A program made the position numbers and the translations under genes. Below the pieces are notes generated by a model, which saw only the letters and a list, made by a program, of their open reading frames with translations, was not told where the DNA came from and did no database searches. DNA of 38,208 nucleotides from Enterobacteria phage T3. Within the stretch, counting starts at the first letter, position 1, and each line of letters opens with the position of its first letter. Positions 18,093 through 38,208 of this stretch are shown in pieces. Location: the sequence record NC_003298.1; one strand, written 5' to 3'.

Positions 18093-19700
18093 ATGGCTGA
18101 TTCAAAACGTACAGGATTGGGCGAAGACGGTGCTAAAGCTACCTATGACCGCCTAACAAACGACCGTAGAGCCTATGAGACTCGTGCGGAGAACTGTGCG
18201 CAATACACCATTCCGTCCTTGTTCCCGAAGGAGTCCGATAACGAATCTACCGACTACACGACTCCGTGGCAGGCTGTAGGTGCGCGGGGTCTCAACAATC
18301 TAGCCTCTAAGTTAATGCTTGCGTTATTCCCGATGCAGTCGTGGATGAAGCTGACCATTAGCGAATATGAGGCGAAGCAGCTTGTTGGAGACCCTGATGG
18401 ACTCGCTAAGGTGGACGAAGGTCTGTCAATGGTTGAGCGCATAATCATGAACTATATCGAATCCAACAGTTACCGCGTAACACTCTTTGAGTGCCTCAAG
18501 CAGTTGATCGTGGCTGGTAACGCCCTGCTTTACTTACCGGAACCAGAAGGTAGCTACAATCCGATGAAGCTGTACCGATTGTCTTCTTATGTTGTCCAAA
18601 GAGACGCATACGGCAATGTGTTACAGATTGTCACTCGTGACCAGATAGCCTTTGGTGCTCTCCCGGAAGACGTTAGGTCTGCGGTAGAGAAATCTGGTGG
18701 TGAGAAGAAGATGGACGAAATGGTCGATGTGTACACCCATGTGTATCTCGATGAAGAGTCCGGCGATTACCTCAAGTACGAGGAAGTAGAGGACGTTGAG
18801 ATTGATGGTTCCGATGCCACCTATCCGACTGACGCGATGCCCTACATTCCGGTTCGCATGGTTCGCATTGATGGCGAGTCTTACGGTCGCTCCTACTGTG
18901 AAGAATACTTAGGTGACTTAAGGTCGCTTGAGAATCTCCAAGAGGCTATCGTTAAGATGAGTATGATTAGCGCGAAGGTCATTGGTCTGGTGAACCCGGC
19001 TGGCATTACGCAGCCCCGTAGATTAACCAAAGCTCAGACTGGTGACTTCGTTCCAGGCCGTCGAGAAGATATTGACTTCCTGCAACTGGAGAAGCAAGCT
19101 GACTTTACCGTAGCGAAAGCTGTGAGTGACCAGATAGAAGCACGCTTATCGTATGCCTTTATGTTGAACTCTGCGGTACAGCGCACAGGCGAACGTGTGA
19201 CCGCCGAAGAGATTCGATACGTTGCGTCAGAACTGGAAGATACGCTTGGTGGCGTCTACTCGATTCTGTCTCAAGAATTGCAATTGCCTCTGGTACGTGT
19301 GCTCTTGAAGCAACTCCAAGCAACCTCGCAGATTCCTGAGCTACCGAAAGAAGCCGTTGAGCCTACTATCAGTACAGGTCTGGAAGCAATTGGTCGTGGT
19401 CAAGACCTCGATAAGCTGGAGCGTTGCATCTCAGCGTGGGCGGCTCTTGCCCCTATGCAGGGAGACCCGGACATTAATCTTGCTGTCATTAAGCTACGCA
19501 TTGCTAACGCTATAGGTATTGATACTTCTGGTATCCTACTGACGGATGAACAGAAGCAAGCCCTTATGATGCAGGATGCGGCACAAACAGGCGTCGAGAA
19601 TGCTGCGGCTGCTGGTGGTGCTGGTGTTGGTGCTTTGGCTACCTCAAGTCCAGAAGCCATGCAAGGTGCTGCTGCCAAGGCTGGCCTCAACGCCACCTAA
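18093..19700 (+). CDS. 8: Portal (head-tail connector) protein
   Basis: 535 aa, GAGGAGG SD. Confidence 0.95.
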   Translation: MADSKRTGLGEDGAKATYDRLTNDRRAYETRAENCAQYTIPSLFPKESDNESTDYTTPWQAVGARGLNNLASKLMLALFPMQSWMKLTISEYEAKQLVGDPDGLAKVDEGLSMVERIIMNYIESNSYRVTLFECLKQLIVAGNALLYLPEPEGSYNPMKLYRLSSYVVQRDAYGNVLQIVTRDQIAFGALPEDVRSAVEKSGGEKKMDEMVDVYTHVYLDEESGDYLKYEEVEDVEIDGSDATYPTDAMPYIPVRMVRIDGESYGRSYCEEYLGDLRSLENLQEAIVKMSMISAKVIGLVNPAGITQPRRLTKAQTGDFVPGRREDIDFLQLEKQADFTVAKAVSDQIEARLSYAFMLNSAVQRTGERVTAEEIRYVASELEDTLGGVYSILSQELQLPLVRVLLKQLQATSQIPELPKEAVEPTISTGLEAIGRGQDLDKLERCISAWAALAPMQGDPDINLAVIKLRIANAIGIDTSGILLTDEQKQALMMQDAAQTGVENAAAAGGAGVGALATSSPEAMQGAAAKAGLNAT

Positions 19701-19801: not shown

Positions 19802-20734
19802 ATGGCTGAATCTAATGCAGACGTTTATGCGTCCTTCGGTGTGAACAACGCGGTAATGACCGGAAGCACACCTACTGAACACGAACAGAATATGCTGAGT
19901 CTCGACGTTGCTGCCCGTGATGGCGATGATGCAATCGTGCTTAGCGATGAACCGACTTCCCATAACGATGACCCCTATGCGGCAGGTGTAGACCCGTTCG
20001 CTGATGGTGAAGATGATGAGGGCCGCATTCAGGTTCGTATCAGTGAAGATGGCAATGAAGCCGGGTTCGACACTGATGGCGATAACTCTGAGGTGGAGAC
20101 CGAAGGTGAGGACGTTGAGTTTGAACCGCTGGGTGACACCCCAGAAGAACTAAGCCAAGTGACTGAGCAATTAGGTCAGCACGAAGAAGGCTTTCAGGCG
20201 ATGGTCGAGCAGGCAGTTGAGCGTGGACTGAGCGCAGACTCTGTGAGTCGAATCTACGAAGAGTATGAAGCCGATGGCATCTCCGAGAAATCCTATGCTG
20301 AACTAGAAGCTGCTGGCTATAGTCGTGCCTTTGTGGACTCATACATCTCAGGTCAGGAAGCTCTGGTAGACCAGTACGTCAATCAGGTAGTTGCCTTTGC
20401 TGGTGGTCAGGAGCGCTTTAGTGCAATCCATACTCACCTCGAAGCGACAAACCCTGCTGCTGCTGAGTCCCTTGAGTCTGCCATGATGAACCGAGACTTG
20501 GCGACCGTCAAAGCGATTATCAATCTGGCTGGTGAGAGCTACACGAAGAAATTCGGTAAGCCTGCCAACCGTAGTGTTACCAAGCGTGCTACTCCGGTTA
20601 AACCCGTAGCTCGTCAGAAAGAGGGCTTTACGAATCAGGCTGAGATGATTAAAGCTATGAGCGACCCGCGCTATCGTAGCGATTCTGCCTACCGCCAAAT
20701 GGTAGAACAGAAGGTTATCGACTCTAGTTTCTAA
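19802..20734 (+). CDS. 9: Capsid assembly (scaffolding) protein
   Basis: 310 aa, strongly acidic N-terminal half. Confidence 0.9.
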   Translation: MAESNADVYASFGVNNAVMTGSTPTEHEQNMLSLDVAARDGDDAIVLSDEPTSHNDDPYAAGVDPFADGEDDEGRIQVRISEDGNEAGFDTDGDNSEVETEGEDVEFEPLGDTPEELSQVTEQLGQHEEGFQAMVEQAVERGLSADSVSRIYEEYEADGISEKSYAELEAAGYSRAFVDSYISGQEALVDQYVNQVVAFAGGQERFSAIHTHLEATNPAAAESLESAMMNRDLATVKAIINLAGESYTKKFGKPANRSVTKRATPVKPVARQKEGFTNQAEMIKAMSDPRYRSDSAYRQMVEQKVIDSSF

Positions 20735-20755
20735 TTAACCCTCACTAAAGGGAGA
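20733..20755 (+). promoter_or_regulatory. T3-type promoter, class III (phi10), exact consensus
   Basis: AATTAACCCTCACTAAAGGGAGA 23/23. Confidence 0.95.
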
Positions 20756-20890
20756 GACCATAGATGCCTACAATGGTTGAATCACCTGAGCACAGAACTT
20801 TGTGGTCACTCCCATAGGTGAAACATTGAGAACCAACTCGATTCAAGTAGTAACCAAACTTTTCTTTAAATTAACATAAGGAGATTCAAC

Positions 20891-21934
20891 ATGGCTAACA
20901 TTCAAGGCGGACAGCAAATTGGTACTAATCAGGGTAAGGGTCAGTCCGCAGCGGACAAATTGGCGCTGTTCCTGAAAGTGTTCGGCGGTGAAGTCCTGAC
21001 GGCTTTCGCTCGCACCTCCGTGACCATGCCTCGTCACATGCTGCGCTCTATTGCTTCTGGTAAGTCCGCACAGTTCCCTGTGATTGGTCGCACCAAAGCT
21101 GCTTACCTGAAACCGGGTGAGAACCTCGATGACAAACGTAAAGATATCAAACACACCGAGAAGGTAATCCACATTGATGGCCTGCTGACTGCGGATGTGC
21201 TGATTTACGACATTGAGGACGCGATGAACCACTATGACGTTCGCGCTGAGTACACCGCCCAGTTGGGTGAATCTCTGGCGATGGCGGCTGACGGTGCTGT
21301 ACTGGCAGAACTGGCTGGTCTTGTTAATCTGCCGGACGGCTCTAACGAGAACATTGAGGGTCTCGGTAAGCCAACCGTACTGACTCTGGTTAAGCCTACC
21401 ACTGGCAGCCTGACTGACCCGGTTGAGTTGGGTAAAGCGATTATTGCTCAGTTGACTATCGCTCGTGCATCCCTGACCAAGAACTACGTTCCGGCTGCTG
21501 ATCGCACCTTCTACACCACTCCTGACAACTACTCTGCGATTCTGGCTGCTCTGATGCCGAACGCAGCAAACTATCAGGCACTGCTCGACCCTGAGCGCGG
21601 TACTATCCGTAACGTGATGGGCTTCGAGGTGGTTGAGGTTCCGCACCTGACCGCTGGTGGTGCAGGCGATACCCGTGAGGATGCCCCGGCTGACCAGAAG
21701 CACGCTTTCCCGGCTACTTCCAGCACTACCGTTAAGGTTGCTCTGGATAACGTTGTGGGCCTGTTCCAGCACCGCTCTGCGGTTGGTACGGTCAAACTGA
21801 AAGACTTGGCTCTGGAGCGTGCTCGTCGTGCGAACTATCAGGCTGACCAGATTATCGCTAAATATGCGATGGGTCACGGCGGTCTGCGTCCAGAAGCTGC
21901 TGGCGCTATCGTGCTCCCAAAGGTGTCGGAGTAA
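20891..21934 (+). CDS. 10A: Major capsid protein 10A
   Basis: 347 aa; TAAGGAG SD; follows the strongest promoter. Confidence 0.97.
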   Translation: MANIQGGQQIGTNQGKGQSAADKLALFLKVFGGEVLTAFARTSVTMPRHMLRSIASGKSAQFPVIGRTKAAYLKPGENLDDKRKDIKHTEKVIHIDGLLTADVLIYDIEDAMNHYDVRAEYTAQLGESLAMAADGAVLAELAGLVNLPDGSNENIEGLGKPTVLTLVKPTTGSLTDPVELGKAIIAQLTIARASLTKNYVPAADRTFYTTPDNYSAILAALMPNAANYQALLDPERGTIRNVMGFEVVEVPHLTAGGAGDTREDAPADQKHAFPATSSTTVKVALDNVVGLFQHRSAVGTVKLKDLALERARRANYQADQIIAKYAMGHGGLRPEAAGAIVLPKVSE

Positions 21935-22191
21935 TTCCCGACCCCACTGGAGTTACGTTAAGTCAAAAGACCATGACGCTTGTTGAGGGTGCATCCCGTG
22001 CCCTCACAGGAACAGTCCAGCCTTCCGATGCGAATCAGTCGTTAAGCTGGTCGTCTTCTGCGGAAGATGTGGCTGTATGGGAAGCTGGAAAGGTTGTAGC
22101 CAAAGGTGTGGGAACGGCGGACATTACAGCTACTACCTCCAATGGCCTGATCGCTTCCTGTAAAGTGATTGTTAACGCCGCAACGTCTTAA
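20891..22191 (+). CDS. 10B: Minor capsid protein 10B, made by -1 ribosomal frameshift near the end of 10A
   Basis: Slippery heptamer C_CCA_AAG at 21916-21922, four codons before the 10A stop; the -1 frame is open to 22191 and adds about 90 residues. Confidence 0.7.
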
Positions 22192-22351
22192 AACACGTAG
22201 TGCCCAATTAGGGCATCATGTGGCGTGAAGCACTCTCAAGCCGCGAAGTGGCACATACGTCTGACTATGGGGACTACCAAGAGCTACGACTATCATGTGG
22301 GCAACCACCCTGAAAGCTCGTTGTGATTGGGATAACAATCTACTAATATGC

Positions 22352-22394
22352 AAACCCCTTGGGTTCCCTCTTTGGGAGTCTGAGGGGTTTTTTG
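22352..22394 (+). terminator. Late terminator (Tphi-like)
   Basis: GC-rich hairpin AACCCCTTGGG ... GAGGGGTT followed by TTTTTTG; resembles T7 Tphi from memory. Confidence 0.85.
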
Positions 22395-22417
22395 CTTTAA
22401 CCCTCACTAACAGGAGG
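22395..22417 (+). promoter_or_regulatory. T3-type promoter, class II (phi11)
   Basis: CTTTAACCCTCACTAACAGGAGG, directly abutting the terminator. Confidence 0.8.
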
Positions 22418-22424
22418 TAACATC

Positions 22425-23015
22425 ATGCGCTCTTATGAGATGAACATTGAGACCGCAGAAGAGCTATCAGCCGTCAACGACATTCTGGCTTCCATCGGTG
22501 AGCCACCAGTATCGACCCTTGAGGGTGATGCAAACGCTGATGTTGCAAATGCTCGACGTGTACTCAACAAGATTAACCGACAGATTCAGTCACGAGGATG
22601 GACATTCAACATCGAAGAGGGCGTGACTCTTCTACCAGATGCATTCTCTGGCATGATACCGTTTAGCTCTGACTATCTGTCAGTAATGGCTACAAGCGGT
22701 CAGACCCAATATGTCAACCGTGGTGGCTATCTCTATGACCGCTCTGCGAAGACTGACCGATTTCCTTCTGGTGTTCAGGTCAACCTGATTCGTCTGAGAG
22801 AGTTCGATGAGATGCCTGAGTGCTTCCGAAACTATATCGTTACCAAGGCTTCCCGCCAGTTTAACAACCGCTTCTTTGGTGCGCCGGAGGTAGACGGAGT
22901 GTTGCAGGAAGAGGAACAGGAAGCATGGAGTGCGTGCTTCGAGTACGAGCTAGACTACGGCAACTATAACATGCTGGATGGTGACGCATTCACCTCTGGT
23001 CTACTTAACCGCTAA
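22425..23015 (+). CDS. 11: Tail tubular protein A
   Basis: 196 aa, same length as T7 gp11. Confidence 0.93.
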
Positions 23016-28802: not shown

Positions 28803-31800
28803 ATGGATAAGTACGATAAGAACGTACCAAGTGATTATGATGGTCTGTTCCAAAAGGAGGCTGATGCCAACGGGGTCTCTTATGACCTTTTACGTAAAGT
28901 CGCTTGGACAGAGTCACGATTTGTACCCACAGCTAAATCTAAGACTGGACCATTAGGCATAATGCAATTCACCAAGGCAACCGCTAATGCCCTTGGTCTG
29001 CGAGTTACAGATGGTCCAGACGACGACCGACTTAACCCTGAGTTAGCTATCAACGCTGCCGCTAAGCACCTTGCAGGTCTGGTAGGTAAATTCGACGGTG
29101 ATGAACTTAAAGCTGCCCTTGCATACAACCAAGGCGAGGGACGCTTGGGTAATCCACAACTTGAGGCATACTCTAAGGGAGACTTCGCGTCCATCTCTGA
29201 GGAAGGACGTAACTATCTGCGTAACCTTCTGGATGTCGCTAAGTCACCGATGGCTGGACAGTTGGAAACTTTTGGAGGTATCACCCCAAAGGGTAAAGGC
29301 ATTCCGGCTGACGTTGGACTAGCTGGAATCGACCACAGTCAGAAAGTAACACAGGAACTTCCTGAGTCCACAAGTTTTGACGTTAAAGGTATCGAACAGG
29401 AGGCTCCGGCGAAACCATTCGCCAAGGACTTTTGGGAGACCCACGGAGAAACACTTGATGAGTACAACAGTCGTTCAACCTTCTTCGGATTCAAAAATGC
29501 TACCGAAGCTGAACTCTCCAACTCAGTCGCTGGGATGGCTTTCCGTGCTGGTCGCCTCGATAATGGTTTTGATGTGTTTAAAGACACCATTACGCCGACT
29601 CGCTGGAACTCTCACATCTGGACTCCAGAAGAGTTAGAGAAGATTCGAACTGAGGTTAAGAACCCTGCGTATATCAACGTGGTAACTGGTGGTTCTCCTG
29701 AGAATCTTGACGACCTCATTAAGTTGGCTAACGAGAACTTTGAGAATGACTCACGCTCTGCCGAAGCTGGACTGGGTGCCAAACTGAGTGCTGGTATTAT
29801 CGGTGCTGGTGTGGACCCACTCAGCTATGTTCCTATGGTCGGTGTGACTGGTAAGAGCTTTAAGTTAATCAATAAGGCTCTTGTAGTTGGTGCCGAAAGT
29901 GCTGCGCTGAACGTTGCATCCGAAGGTCTACGTACCTCCGTAGCTGGTGGTGACGCTGACTACTCAGGGGCTGCTTTAGGTGGCTTTGTGTTTGGTGCTG
30001 GTATGTCCGCAATCAGTGACGCTATCGCTGCTGGACTGAAACGTAGTAAACCCGAAACTGAGTTCGACAATGAGTTCATCGGACCTATGATGCGAATGGA
30101 AGCCCGTGAGACCGCACGCAACGCAAACTCTACGGACCTCTCTCGTATGAACACTGATAACATGAAGTTTGAAGGTGAGCATAACGGAGTACCTTATGAG
30201 GACCTTCCTACTGAGAAGGGCGCTGTGGTACTGCACGATGGCTCCGTTATAAGTGCAAACAACCCAATCAACCCTAAGACCCTCAAAGAGTTCTCTGAGG
30301 TTGACCCTGAGAAGGCTGCGCGAGGAATCAAACTTGCTGGGTTCACCGAGATAGGCTTGAAGACCTTGGGGTCTGACGATGCTGACATCCGCAGAGTGGC
30401 TATCGACCTCGTTCGCTCTCCTACTGGTATGCAGTCTGGTGCCTCAGGGAAGTTCGGTGCAACAGCTTCTGACATCCATGAGAGACTTCACGGTACCGAC
30501 CAGCGTACTTATAATGACTTGTACAAAGCAATGTCTGACGCTATGAAAGACCCTGAGTTCTCTACTGGCGGAGCTAAGATGTCCCGTGAAGAAACTCGCT
30601 ACACTATCTACCGTAGAGCGGCACTGGCTATTGAGCGTCCAGAGTTACAGAAGGCACTCACTCCGTCTGAGAGAATAGTTATGGACACTATTAAGCGTCA
30701 CTTTGACACCAAGCGTGAACTTATGGAGAACCCAGCAATCTTCGGTAATACGAAGTCTGTTAGTATTTTCCCTGAGAGTCGCCACAAAGGGACTTACGTT
30801 CCTCACGTTTACGACCGTCATGCAAAAGCACTGATGATTCAACGCTACGGTGCCGAAGGTTTACAGGAAGGTATTGCTCGTTCGTGGATGAACAGCTACG
30901 TCTCCAGACCTGGGGTCAAGGTCAGAGTCGATGAGATGCTTAAGGAATTACACGGGGTGAAGGAAGTAACACCAGAGATGGTAGAGAAGTACGCTATGGA
31001 TAAGGCTTACGGTATCTCCCACTCAGACCAGTTCACCAACAGTTCCATAATCGAAGAGAACATTGAGGGCTTAGTAGGTATAGAGAACAACTCATTCCTT
31101 GAGGCACGTAACTTGTTTGATTCGGACCTATCCATCACTATGCCAGACGGACAGCAATTCTCAGTGAACGACCTAAGGGACTTCGATATGTTCCGCATCA
31201 TGCCAGCGTATGACCGCCGTATCAATGGTGACATCGCTATCATGGGGTCTACAGGGAAAACCACTAAGGAACTTAAGGATGAGATTTTGGCTCTCAAAGC
31301 GAAAGCTGAGGGAGACGGTAAGAAGACTGGCGAGGTTCATGCTCTAATGGATACCGTTAAGATTCTTACTGGTCGTGCTCGACGTAATCAGGACACTGTG
31401 TGGGAAACCACATTACGTTCCATCAATGACCTAGGGTTCTTCGCTAAGAACGCCTACATGGGTGCTCAGAACATTACGGAGATTGCTGGGATGATTGTCA
31501 CTGGTAACGTGCGTGCTCTCGGTCACGGTATCCCAATTCTGCGTGACACCCTCTACAAGTCTAAACCAGTTTCCGCTAAGGAACTCAAGGAACTCCATGC
31601 GTCTCTGTTCGGAAAGGAGGTGGACCAGTTGATTAGACCTCAACGTGCTGATATAGTGCAGCGTCTAAGGGAAGCAACTGATACAGGGCCTGTTGTGGCG
31701 AACATCGTAGGTACCTTGAAGTATTCCACACAGGAACTGGCTGCTCGCTCTCCGTGGACTAAGCTGCTGAACGGAACCACTAACTACCTTCTGGATGCTG

Positions 31801-32759
31801 CGCGTCAAGGTATGCTTGGGGACGTTATTAGTGCCACCCTAACAGGCAAGACTACCCGCTGGGAGAAAGAAGGCTTCCTTCGTGGTGCCTCCGTAACTCC
31901 TGAGCAGATGGCTGGCATCAAGTCTCTCATCAAGGAACATATGGTACGTGGTGAGGACGGGAAGTTTACAGTTAAGGACAAGCAAGCGTTCTCTATGGAC
32001 CCACGGGCTATGGACTTATGGCGACTGGCTGACAAGGTAGCTGATGAGGCAATGCTGCGTCCGCATAAGGTGTCCTTACAGGATTCCCATGCGTTCGGAG
32101 CATTAGGTAAGATGGTTATGCAGTTTAAGTCTTTCACTATCAAGTCCCTTAACTCTAAGTTCCTGCGAACCTTCTATGATGGATACAAGAACAACCGAGC
32201 GATTGACGCTGCGCTGAGCATTATCACCTCTATGGGTCTCGCTGGTGGTTTCTATGCTATGGCTGCACACGTCAAAGCATACGCTCTGCCTAAGGAGAAA
32301 CGTAAGGAGTACTTGGAGCGTGCACTGGACCCAACCATGATTGCCCACGCTGCGTTATCTCGTAGTTCTCAATTGGGCGCTCCTTTGGCTATGGCTGACC
32401 TAGTTGGCGGTGTCTTAGGGTTCGAATCTTCCAAGATGGCTCGCTCAACGATTCTGCCTAAGGACACCATGAAGGAACGTGACCCAAACAAACCGTACAC
32501 CTCTAGAGAGGTAATGGGAGCTATGGGTTCGAACCTTCTGGAGCAGATGCCTTCCGCTGGCTTTGTGGCTAACGTAGGGGCTACCTTAATGAATGCTGCT
32601 GGTGTGGTTAACTCACCTAACAAAGCAACCGAGCAGGACTTCATGACTGGATTGATGAACTCTACCAAAGAGTTAGTGCCTAACGACCCTCTTACTCAAC
32701 AGCTTGTGGTTAAGATTTATGAGGCGAACGGTGTTAACCTGAGGGAGCGTAAGAAATAA
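28803..32759 (+). CDS. 16: Internal core protein gp16 with N-terminal lytic transglycosylase domain
   Basis: 1318 aa; N-terminal SLT-like motif ...VAWTESRFVPTAKSKTGPLGIMQF... Confidence 0.95.
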   Translation: MDKYDKNVPSDYDGLFQKEADANGVSYDLLRKVAWTESRFVPTAKSKTGPLGIMQFTKATANALGLRVTDGPDDDRLNPELAINAAAKHLAGLVGKFDGDELKAALAYNQGEGRLGNPQLEAYSKGDFASISEEGRNYLRNLLDVAKSPMAGQLETFGGITPKGKGIPADVGLAGIDHSQKVTQELPESTSFDVKGIEQEAPAKPFAKDFWETHGETLDEYNSRSTFFGFKNATEAELSNSVAGMAFRAGRLDNGFDVFKDTITPTRWNSHIWTPEELEKIRTEVKNPAYINVVTGGSPENLDDLIKLANENFENDSRSAEAGLGAKLSAGIIGAGVDPLSYVPMVGVTGKSFKLINKALVVGAESAALNVASEGLRTSVAGGDADYSGAALGGFVFGAGMSAISDAIAAGLKRSKPETEFDNEFIGPMMRMEARETARNANSTDLSRMNTDNMKFEGEHNGVPYEDLPTEKGAVVLHDGSVISANNPINPKTLKEFSEVDPEKAARGIKLAGFTEIGLKTLGSDDADIRRVAIDLVRSPTGMQSGASGKFGATASDIHERLHGTDQRTYNDLYKAMSDAMKDPEFSTGGAKMSREETRYTIYRRAALAIERPELQKALTPSERIVMDTIKRHFDTKRELMENPAIFGNTKSVSIFPESRHKGTYVPHVYDRHAKALMIQRYGAEGLQEGIARSWMNSYVSRPGVKVRVDEMLKELHGVKEVTPEMVEKYAMDKAYGISHSDQFTNSSIIEENIEGLVGIENNSFLEARNLFDSDLSITMPDGQQFSVNDLRDFDMFRIMPAYDRRINGDIAIMGSTGKTTKELKDEILALKAKAEGDGKKTGEVHALMDTVKILTGRARRNQDTVWETTLRSINDLGFFAKNAYMGAQNITEIAGMIVTGNVRALGHGIPILRDTLYKSKPVSAKELKELHASLFGKEVDQLIRPQRADIVQRLREATDTGPVVANIVGTLKYSTQELAARSPWTKLLNGTTNYLLDAARQGMLGDVISATLTGKTTRWEKEGFLRGASVTPEQMAGIKSLIKEHMVRGEDGKFTVKDKQAFSMDPRAMDLWRLADKVADEAMLRPHKVSLQDSHAFGALGKMVMQFKSFTIKSLNSKFLRTFYDGYKNNRAIDAALSIITSMGLAGGFYAMAAHVKAYALPKEKRKEYLERALDPTMIAHAALSRSSQLGAPLAMADLVGGVLGFESSKMARSTILPKDTMKERDPNKPYTSREVMGAMGSNLLEQMPSAGFVANVGATLMNAAGVVNSPNKATEQDFMTGLMNSTKELVPNDPLTQQLVVKIYEANGVNLRERKK

Positions 32760-37977: not shown

Positions 37978-38208
37978 TCTCATAGTTCAAGAACCCAAAG
38001 TACCCCCCCCATAGCCCCTCTTAAAGCCACCCAAAGCTGGCCCTACCCCTAGGGTTTAACCTTCGGTTAACCTTGGGTCTTTCCTCAAGTGGCCTATAGG
38101 ATAGCCTAAAGTGATGCCTAAAGTCAATACCTAAAGTGATGGCTGCCTATTGGAGACTTAAAGAGTGTCCTAGTGTACCAGTATGATAGTACATCTCTAT
38201 GTGTCCCT
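37978..38208. repeat. Right direct terminal repeat (231 bp), identical to 1-231
   Basis: Exact copy of 1-231. Confidence 0.95.

Follow-up and report, generated by a model that had tools for sequence, protein, structure and literature searches.

The CCCAAAG heptamer of coliphage T3 gene 10 as a highly probable programmed -1 ribosomal frameshift site joining an Ig-like extension to the major capsid protein

Background

In gene 10 of phage T7, a -1 frameshift at G_GUU_UUC was reportedly described by Condron, Atkins and Gesteland in 1991. In T7 as in T3, a minor capsid protein, 10B, is obtained from the homologous capsid gene by shifting to the -1 frame only a few codons ahead of the 10A stop. 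The T7 extension is not Ig-like, and frameshifting in T7 depends on a remote 3' element, part of which is a CCCC in the terminator (PMC5009743), a T7 feature to which nothing comparable is known or demonstrated for T3.

Ig-like domains are appended by frameshifting in other phages. Lactobacillus phage A2 and Listeria phages A118, A500 and PSA resemble T3 in carrying a C-terminal Ig-like (Big_2) domain on part of their capsid or tail subunits through this process, and T3 is explicitly listed among such phages (PMC5009743), although the direction and the site of the shift vary when this group is compared with T3. As an example, Lactococcus phage PLgY-30 has a homologous Big_2 domain (50% identity), reached through an apparent +1 shift at CCC_TAA. 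With regard to the slippery sequence itself, the X_XXA_AAG sites of E. coli dnaX and of IS3/IS911 belong to the same heptamer class and exploit the single tRNA-Lys (PMC4066793). Their stimulators are defined (an upstream SD-like element together with a strong stem-loop, or a pseudoknot), whereas T3 displays only a weak candidate hairpin and lacks an upstream SD-like sequence. Of the -1 heptamers measured in E. coli, C_CC.A_AA.G shifts most efficiently, reaching 54% with the IS3 pseudoknot, and the leading tetramer, A_AA.G, reaches 5.6% with the same pseudoknot; heptamers deprived of a stimulator reach 2- to 10-fold over a background of 0.055% in reporters (PMC4066793). Since the heptamer alone gives at most ~10-fold over background, a readily visible 10B implies a stimulator.

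The 10A/10B frameshift of T3 is already known, as it has been in GenBank since 1989 and its Ig-like extension appears in reviews. Indeed, the T3 major coat protein was described as extended by -1 frameshifting, with an Ig-like extension (Atkins et al. 2016, PMC5009743), gp10B was given as 86 residues longer than gp10A (PMC3276506), and a third paper mentions 'T3 and phiYeO3-12 ... capsid frameshifting at lysyl residues' (PMC2579914). For T3 itself, the site reported here is therefore a rediscovery of existing annotation that adds nothing to the record.

Results

Genome identity and gene 10A

The window, i.e., the whole stretch of 38,208 bp that was analysed, comprises the entire genome of coliphage T3 and has a direct terminal repeat of 231 bp. 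Over 1801 nt around the site, it matches the T3 records X15840.1 and X17255.1 with 100% identity, and other T3 and T7M genomes display 99.8-99.9% identity to the 1.8-kb region around it. Coordinates agree with those published for T3 Luria, in which Ile421 of gp10B was placed at nt 22151 and T-phi at 22352-22390 (PMC3276506): in the window, codon 421 of the frameshift product is the ATC at 22150-22152.

20891..21934, + strand: gene 10A, major capsid protein, 347 aa, zero frame (open reading frame; PF21703; annotation of X17255.1)
22352..22390, + strand: T-phi terminator stem-loop at the 3' end of the gene 10 mRNA (stem_loop of X17255.1; T7M terminator)

The 10A product matches the Pfam family PF21703 (Gp10A-like, E=7.9e-110) and the T7 10A protein in the PDB (2xvr/3j7v, E=3.8e-170), and these matches place it among the Gp10A-like HK97-fold major capsid proteins. 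The stem of T-phi is 17 bp long.

Shift site and reading frames

21916..21922, + strand: slippery heptamer C_CCA_AAG (from the sequence; the annotated shifts of X17255.1 and AJ251805.1 map here)
21862..21931, + strand: overlap of 23 codons in which the 0 and -1 frames are both open (-1 stop TAA at 21859-21861)
21922..22191, + strand: 10B-specific extension, -1 frame, 89 codons plus TAA (joined CDS in X17255.1, AJ251805.1 and JX421753.1)

The ATG of 10A lies at 20891 and (21917-20891) mod 3 = 0, which gives the register C_CCA_AAG; AAG is codon 344 of 10A and is followed by GTG TCG GAG and by TAA at 21932-21934. The -1 frame has no stop from 21862 to 22188 and no ATG, GTG or TTG between 21862 and 21972, and no slippery heptamer besides CCCAAAG was found in the 23-codon overlap at 21862-21931. 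Synthesis of 10B needs a shift inside this overlap. The full 10B, obtained by joining 20891-21922 to 21922-22191, is predicted to be 433 aa long, i.e., 86 residues longer than 10A, which equals the published length difference (PMC3276506). Its predicted junction reads ...AAGAIVLPK followed directly by GVGVIPDPTGVTLSQKTM..., with LPK-GVGVIPDPTGVTLSQK as the short form of the predicted junction peptide and ...AIVLPKGVGVIPDPTGVTLSQK as the long form.

These positions bear out the initial annotation, which had read CCCAAAG at 21916-21922 in X_XXY_YYZ register, four codons before the 10A stop (a count that is correct when AAG is included), followed by a -1 frame free of stops to 22191 adding about 90 residues (89 open codons, with TAA at 22189-22191) and including a 72-aa ATG ORF at 21973-22191, which is present in the ORF list. 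The junction that it predicted (...GAIVLPK-GVGVIPDPTGV...) is exactly what the frameshift translation gives, and its proposal of -1 frameshifting to a minor capsid protein 10B agrees with the joined GenBank CDSs and with the literature (PMC5009743, PMC3276506). Indeed, X17255.1 carries a two-piece 10B CDS with the remark 'frameshift at 19084', which corresponds to position 21919, within the heptamer; the phiYeO3-12 record (AJ251805.1) states 'ribosome slippage at 22682-22687; -1 frameshift', corresponding to positions 21916-21921; and T7M (JX421753.1) has a joined 10B CDS at the same site.

Chance does not account for the CCCAAAG site. The long + strand ORFs (~32.3 kb) contain just four X_XXY_YYZ heptamers in frame (Y = A or T), and behind the other three the -1 frame stays open for 0, 1 and 5 codons, versus 89 after CCCAAAG. 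Runs of at least 89 codons in the -1 frame are seen at 0.3% of codon positions in T3 genes. A chance ORF was also considered for the extension itself and was ruled out by the Big_2 match described below and by the conservation of the -1 ORF. Altogether, we consider it highly probable (roughly 0.93) that the site is the programmed -1 ribosomal frameshift site of T3 gene 10.

Linker and Ig-like domain of the extension

21922..21972, + strand: linker GVGVIPDPTGVTLSQKT, 17 codons, 5' of the first -1 start codon (comparison with phiIBB-PF7A)
21946..22155, + strand: Big_2 (bacterial Ig-like, group 2) domain, extension residues 9-78 (Pfam PF02368)

The initial annotation had the impression of an Ig-like domain in the extension, and a Pfam profile search substantiated it: Big_2 is matched with E=4.2e-10 and 39.9 bits (gathering cut-off, 22.8 bits) over profile positions 3-75 of 79. 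The single-sequence AlphaFold2 model of the 89-aa extension had a pLDDT of 42.5, with strands confined to the C-terminal half, and since this model is unusable, the Ig fold is assigned from the HMM match alone. The sole PDB sequence match of the extension, to a 'Surface protein' (7z47), is weak (E=1.4e-4).

Between T3 and Pseudomonas phage phiIBB-PF7A, whose capsid protein is 71.5% identical to that of T3 over the C-terminal 200 aa, the linker shows nine synonymous codon differences, one non-synonymous difference and one codon indel, a pattern indicating purifying selection at the protein level. This conservation, in a segment that has no -1 start codon, indicates that the linker can be translated only by ribosomes shifting from 10A within 21862-21931.

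Comparison with T7-type and T3-type phages

In T7-type relatives, G_GTT_TTC lies one codon upstream (..CTG GTT TTC AAA..) of the position of the T3 heptamer (..GTG CTC CCA AAG..), so that the two sites abut. T3 has GTG CTC where the T7-type has GTT TTC, the T7 heptamer is absent from T3, and the slipping tRNAs would be those for Val and Phe in T7 versus Pro and Lys in T3. A tblastn search with the T3 extension gave no match in 76 T7-type loci. T3 thus belongs to the gene 10A/10B system, but with its own site and its own extension module. Yersinia phage phiYeO3-12 and coliphage T7M have the T3 heptamer and junction, and their extensions, which are 95.5-97.8% identical to that of T3, differ from it by point substitutions only (e.g., Ile421Thr in T7M).

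Among wider relatives, A_AAG, i.e., a Lys codon preceded by A, was invariant in every one examined, including Teetrevirus, Pifdecavirus and the SG-JL2 type, and the junction K-GV..PDPTGVTLSQKT is common to Teetrevirus and Pifdecavirus. The complete C_CCA_AAG was found in T3, phiYeO3-12, T7M and GP-5/KNP3-type Teetrevirus, being kept in all T3-type and most GP-5-type Teetrevirus, while NL_ZS_3, phiSG-JL2 and phiCFP-1 have G_CCA_AAG, SM9-3Y has T_GCA_AAG, and the Pseudomonas Pifdecavirus have C_GAA_AAG, A_GAA_AAG or C_GCA_AAG. Since A_AAG is kept while the first three bases vary, the conserved core seems to be the slip of tRNA-Lys, with C_CC as an apparent enhancer in T3.

Candidate stimulatory RNA structures

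21931..21956, + strand: candidate stimulatory hairpin, 8 nt 3' of the heptamer (GUAAUUCC.G / C.GGAGUUAC, loop ACCCCA, -8.7 kcal/mol)
21979..22010, + strand: stable hairpin inside the Big_2 coding sequence, 56 nt 3' of the heptamer (core GAGGGUGC/GUGCCCUC at 21985-22005)

A search for a stimulatory hairpin or pseudoknot downstream of the heptamer had been proposed in the initial annotation. Hairpins were indeed found, a weak one at 21931-21956 and a stronger, distant one at 21979-22010, while a pseudoknot is a geometric possibility only. When the 5' flank was occluded in the folding, which imitates a ribosome sitting on the heptamer, the hairpin at 21931-21956 (nine pairs around one mismatch), which lies at a canonical distance from the heptamer, was the best local fold of T3, and it did not differ significantly from shuffled sequences (z=-1.7). 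In the GP-5/KNP3-type Teetrevirus, a homologous hairpin begins 5 nt after the heptamer and reaches -13.5 kcal/mol (z=-4.6), and Pifdecavirus have a two-part hairpin at the same place (-10 kcal/mol). Its outer helix (alignment columns 13-17/40-44) shows one compensatory third-position A-U <-> C-G change between Teetrevirus and Pifdecavirus, and carries an A.G mismatch in T3. In L007, a metagenomic T3-like contig, a 15-nt deletion removes the 5' arm of the hairpin and puts TGA directly after the heptamer. The SG-JL2-type module has a hairpin ~9 nt downstream of the site, and the authors of the phiIBB-PF7A genome predicted a pseudoknot just downstream, with no proteomic evidence for the product (PMC3080317).

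The hairpin at 21979-22010 lies in a 100-nt segment with z=-4.1, is kept in three sequence groups and shows covariation (both sides change in 5/11 pairs); its distance of 56 nt is non-canonical for a stimulator. Helices 1 and 2 together are paired in 93% of cells, versus 38-51% in slid controls, a figure for which the structure was derived from the same sequences, these representing ~4-5 independent lineages. Scans with the linker pattern added few sequences to the comparison, namely 8 from the viral and 2 from the metagenome collection.

An H-type pseudoknot between the loop ACCCCA (21941-21946) and the G-run at 21987-21990 is speculation: both partners are invariant, leaving no covariation to score, and the G-run doubles as the 5' arm of the hairpin at 21985-22005, which is much stronger. 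A T3-specific 5-bp hairpin, GUCGG/CCGAC (21925-21942), which is present in the MFE structure, was tried as stimulator and rejected, its spacer being only 2 nt and the structure not being conserved in the T3-like sequence L005, in Pifdecavirus or in L007. No Rfam family was found over 20500-22700 at E<=1, and no SD-like stimulator was visible upstream, in GAAGCTGCTGGCGCTATCGTGCT. Thus, no convincing stimulator of the T3 shift was found among the hairpins, Rfam and the upstream sequence; among the structures found, the hairpin at 21931-21956 is the best candidate.

C-terminal modules joined at the shift codon

In Teetrevirus, the Lys shift codon is the exact joint for three or more C-terminal modules that are unrelated or highly diverged, namely the T3-type Big_2, the GP-5-type Big_2 and the short non-Ig tail of SG-JL2. 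T3-type and GP-5-type phages are 97% identical over the last 200 aa of the capsid protein, versus only 66% in their Big_2 extensions, which are 61-66% identical to Pifdecavirus extensions and are thus no farther from these than from each other. The T3-type Big_2 allele was found in 14 phage records, as was the 160-nt untranslated spacer at 22192-22351; other Teetrevirus have only ~30 nt between the 10B stop and T-phi. In phiSG-JL2, AP5 and phiCFP-1, the T3 sequence is followed up to base 21922 and then gives way to a 49-aa non-Ig tail. At the same junction, Pseudomonas Pifdecavirus carry one Big_2, two Big_2, or Big_2 plus a GDSL/SGNH hydrolase. In each module, a hairpin begins 5-10 nt downstream of the shift site.

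Discussion

The anatomy of the site and the established rules of frameshifting suggest the following course of events. Most ribosomes would read C CCA AAG GTG TCG GAG TAA and release the 347-aa 10A, while a minority would slip one base back with tRNA-Pro on CCA in the P site and tRNA-Lys on AAG in the A site, re-pairing from CCA to CCC and from AAG to AAA, respectively. Tandem slippage of tRNA-Pro and tRNA-Lys is the most likely form of this event. The indispensable slip is probably made by the single tRNA-Lys of E. coli, on A_AAG, and the C_CC part probably strengthens re-pairing in the P site. The shifted ribosomes would then translate 89 codons in the -1 frame and yield a 433-aa minor capsid protein, 10B, in which residues 1-344 of 10A are followed by a short linker rich in Pro and by a single Big_2 Ig-like domain that is presumably exposed on the capsid surface. 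Note that synthesis of 10B and its incorporation into virions are taken from the literature, our own analysis being one of sequence and annotation.

The ORF that encodes the Big_2 domain could in principle be a separate small gene, translated from the ATG at 21973 into a 72-aa protein and leaving 10A unextended. An ATG ORF does exist at 21973-22191, relatives carry stand-alone CDSs labelled 'hypothetical protein', 'structural protein with Ig domain' or 'major tail protein', and UNO-SLW1 even has an annotated RBS for its stand-alone Big_2 ORF. However, the Big_2 profile match begins at extension residue 9, 27 nt before this ATG, the 17 codons that precede the ATG are conserved as protein with almost only synonymous change and hold no -1 start codon, and AAGTCAAAAGACC, immediately 5' of the ATG, has no Shine-Dalgarno-like motif. 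The curated T3, phiYeO3-12 and T7M records moreover join the CDS, and we regard a separate gene as very improbable. Two non-ribosomal sources of a shifted product would be slipping by T3 RNA polymerase during transcription of CCCAAAG and heterogeneity of the template at this motif. The homopolymer runs at the site are only 3 nt long (CCC and AAA), whereas a polymerase slips productively on runs of about 7 or more. In addition, the motif obeys the ribosomal X_XXY_YYZ rule in the correct register, and what is invariant in relatives is the tRNA-Lys A_AAG context and not run length. Although other frameshifted phage products are known to arise by transcriptional slippage (PMC5009743), its involvement here appears exceedingly improbable.

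A further alternative concerns the form of the ribosomal shift. In a single-tRNA event, only the A-site tRNA-Lys would slip on A_AAG, and C_CC would be incidental, simply encoding Leu-Pro. The P-site contexts of relatives (G_CCA, T_GCA, C_GAA, A_GAA and C_GCA), which allow no good re-pairing, are consistent with such an event, as are the fact that A_AAG never varies and the rank of A_AA.G as by far the best tetramer in E. coli (PMC4066793). Against it, the complete C_CCA_AAG is retained by T3, phiYeO3-12, T7M and most Teetrevirus with a Big_2 domain, also when the codon ahead of it differs (CTC; CGC in L005), and C_CC.A_AA.G is about ten times as efficient as the tetramer with the IS3 pseudoknot (54% vs 5.6%, PMC4066793). 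We therefore hold the single-tRNA shift to be rather unlikely in T3; it is a refinement of programmed -1 ribosomal frameshifting and gives the site no alternative identity.

The programmed shift at C_CCA_AAG may have a further role in the family. Since the modules diverge at the shift codon, this codon also appears to be a recombination joint at which display modules are exchanged. We tentatively describe it as a possible 'display-cassette docking codon', including a possible capsid display of the GDSL hydrolase, a suggestion for which we claim a limited probability. If it is true, the T3 stimulator would be the hairpin at 21931-21956, and in some relatives an enzyme would be displayed on the capsid through frameshifting. 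In the Pseudomonas putida phages Issaku, KoPa-1 and Keeri, such a capsid-Big_2-GDSL fusion would be roughly 87 kDa in size, versus 50 kDa for a stand-alone protein.

These comparisons also bear on the annotation of related phages. In dozens of GenBank genomes of T3-like phages and of T7-like Pseudomonas phages, the Big_2 ORF is annotated as stand-alone, from an internal ATG, and labelled a 'hypothetical', 'major tail' or 'structural' protein in place of a frameshift-fused minor capsid protein. Some Pseudomonas phages may display much larger cargo at the same junction, including an esterase-like domain, and such larger capsid cargo would be of interest to phage display and to work on phage-host adhesion.

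Shift site and 10B tails in the relatives

Among the relatives compared with T3, the context of the shift site differs in five Pifdecavirus (working handles L089, L090, L091, L095 and L102) and four Teetrevirus sequences (L107, L114, L115 and L116), where it reads C_GAA_AAG, A_GAA_AAG, C_GCA_AAG, G_CCA_AAG or T_GCA_AAG, with A_AAG and a K-G, K-D or K-V junction retained throughout. The tRNA-Lys part is thus the sole invariant part of the heptamer across genera. Note that C_CCA_AAG, the most shift-prone heptamer in E. coli (PMC4066793), occurs in frame a second time in the window, at 29285-29291 within the long ORF 28803-32759. A single -1 codon is open after this second copy, so that slippage would merely truncate the protein, and this occurrence is probably tolerated background.

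A third type of 10B tail, non-Ig and 37-49 aa long, was found in phiSG-JL2 (L114), phiCFP-1 (L115) and SM9-3Y (L116), with ..TPxQKAAITRARNKALK.. at its C-terminal end. Nucleotide homology to T3 (window 21890-21922) stops at the final base of the heptamer in phiSG-JL2 and phiCFP-1, and just 5' of the heptamer in SM9-3Y; since homology ends at the heptamer, the shift codon coincides with a mosaic boundary.

In addition, a T3-like metagenomic contig (L007/L085, IMGVR_UViG_3300038674_000011) lacks 15 nt just 3' of the heptamer and reads CTC CCA AAG TGA CCCCCACTGG. The 10A stop therefore directly adjoins CCCAAAG on its 3' side, the 5' arm of the candidate stimulatory hairpin is lost and the linker is cut to K-VTPTGVTLSQ; the deletion may represent a naturally occurring 'shifty stop' variant or else an artefact of assembly. 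In the siphophage PLgY-30 of Lactococcus (KY926699.2, ~1270-1555), the capsid gene terminates as ...GAVITLP* at CCC TAA A, and the +1 frame that follows (LP-KDPVNPTSITLNQKT...) encodes a Big_2 domain with 50% identity to that of T3, labelled in GenBank as a separate 'minor capsid protein'. This arrangement resembles a +1 shift at CCC_UAA by which ribosomes would enter a homologous module of linker and Ig domain.

RNA structures, spacer and genome ends

The elements considered in and 3' of the T3 extension are as follows.

21979-22010, stable hairpin within the stretch that encodes Big_2
22192-22351, untranslated spacer of 160 nt from the 10B stop to T-phi
~22194-22222, stable hairpin in the spacer, immediately 3' of the 10B stop

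T3-type, GP-5-type and Pifdecavirus alleles all keep the potential to form the 21979-22010 hairpin, with both sides of the stem changed; the T3 register is offset by 2 nt, and one covarying pair consists of two third-codon positions. The spacer occurs in only 14 phage records (T3, T7M, 3/7, phiYeO3-12, Sekstaphage-1, ChM-G5 and Emp27), a number equal to that of the records carrying the T3-type Big_2 allele, and an Rfam search covering the spacer gave no match.

The window is an entire linear phage genome, and each copy of its terminal repeat contains two CCCAAAG motifs (17 and 53; 37994 and 38030).

1-231 and 37978-38208, direct terminal repeat of 231 bp

Annotation of the extension and a long -1 ORF in Pseudomonas phages

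Mis-annotation of the Big_2 extension is widespread in GenBank records of the relatives (e.g., L093, L094, L105, L106, L107 and L117). It stands alone as 'hypothetical protein', 'major tail protein', 'structural protein with Ig domain' or 'cell adhesion domain-containing protein'. The NL_ZS_3 record has an ORF on the reverse strand in its place, and in ChM-G5 the capsid gene is annotated as three separate CDS.

In Pseudomonas phage vB_PpuP-Issaku (L113, PP496423.1, 1087-2511) and likewise in L109, L110 and L092, T7-like phages of Pseudomonas putida/fluorescens, 474 open -1 codons follow the C_GAA_AAG of the capsid gene; in Phi-S1 the -1 frame has closed after 31. The ORF of this group contains:

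Big_2 domain (E=4.9e-12)
GDSL/SGNH hydrolase domain PF13472 (E=1.8e-9)
C-terminal region of ~190 aa

GenBank gives this Big_2/GDSL ORF as a separate CDS starting from an internal ATG ('structural protein with Ig domain'). If it is fused to the capsid protein by frameshifting, these phages would display an esterase on their capsid.
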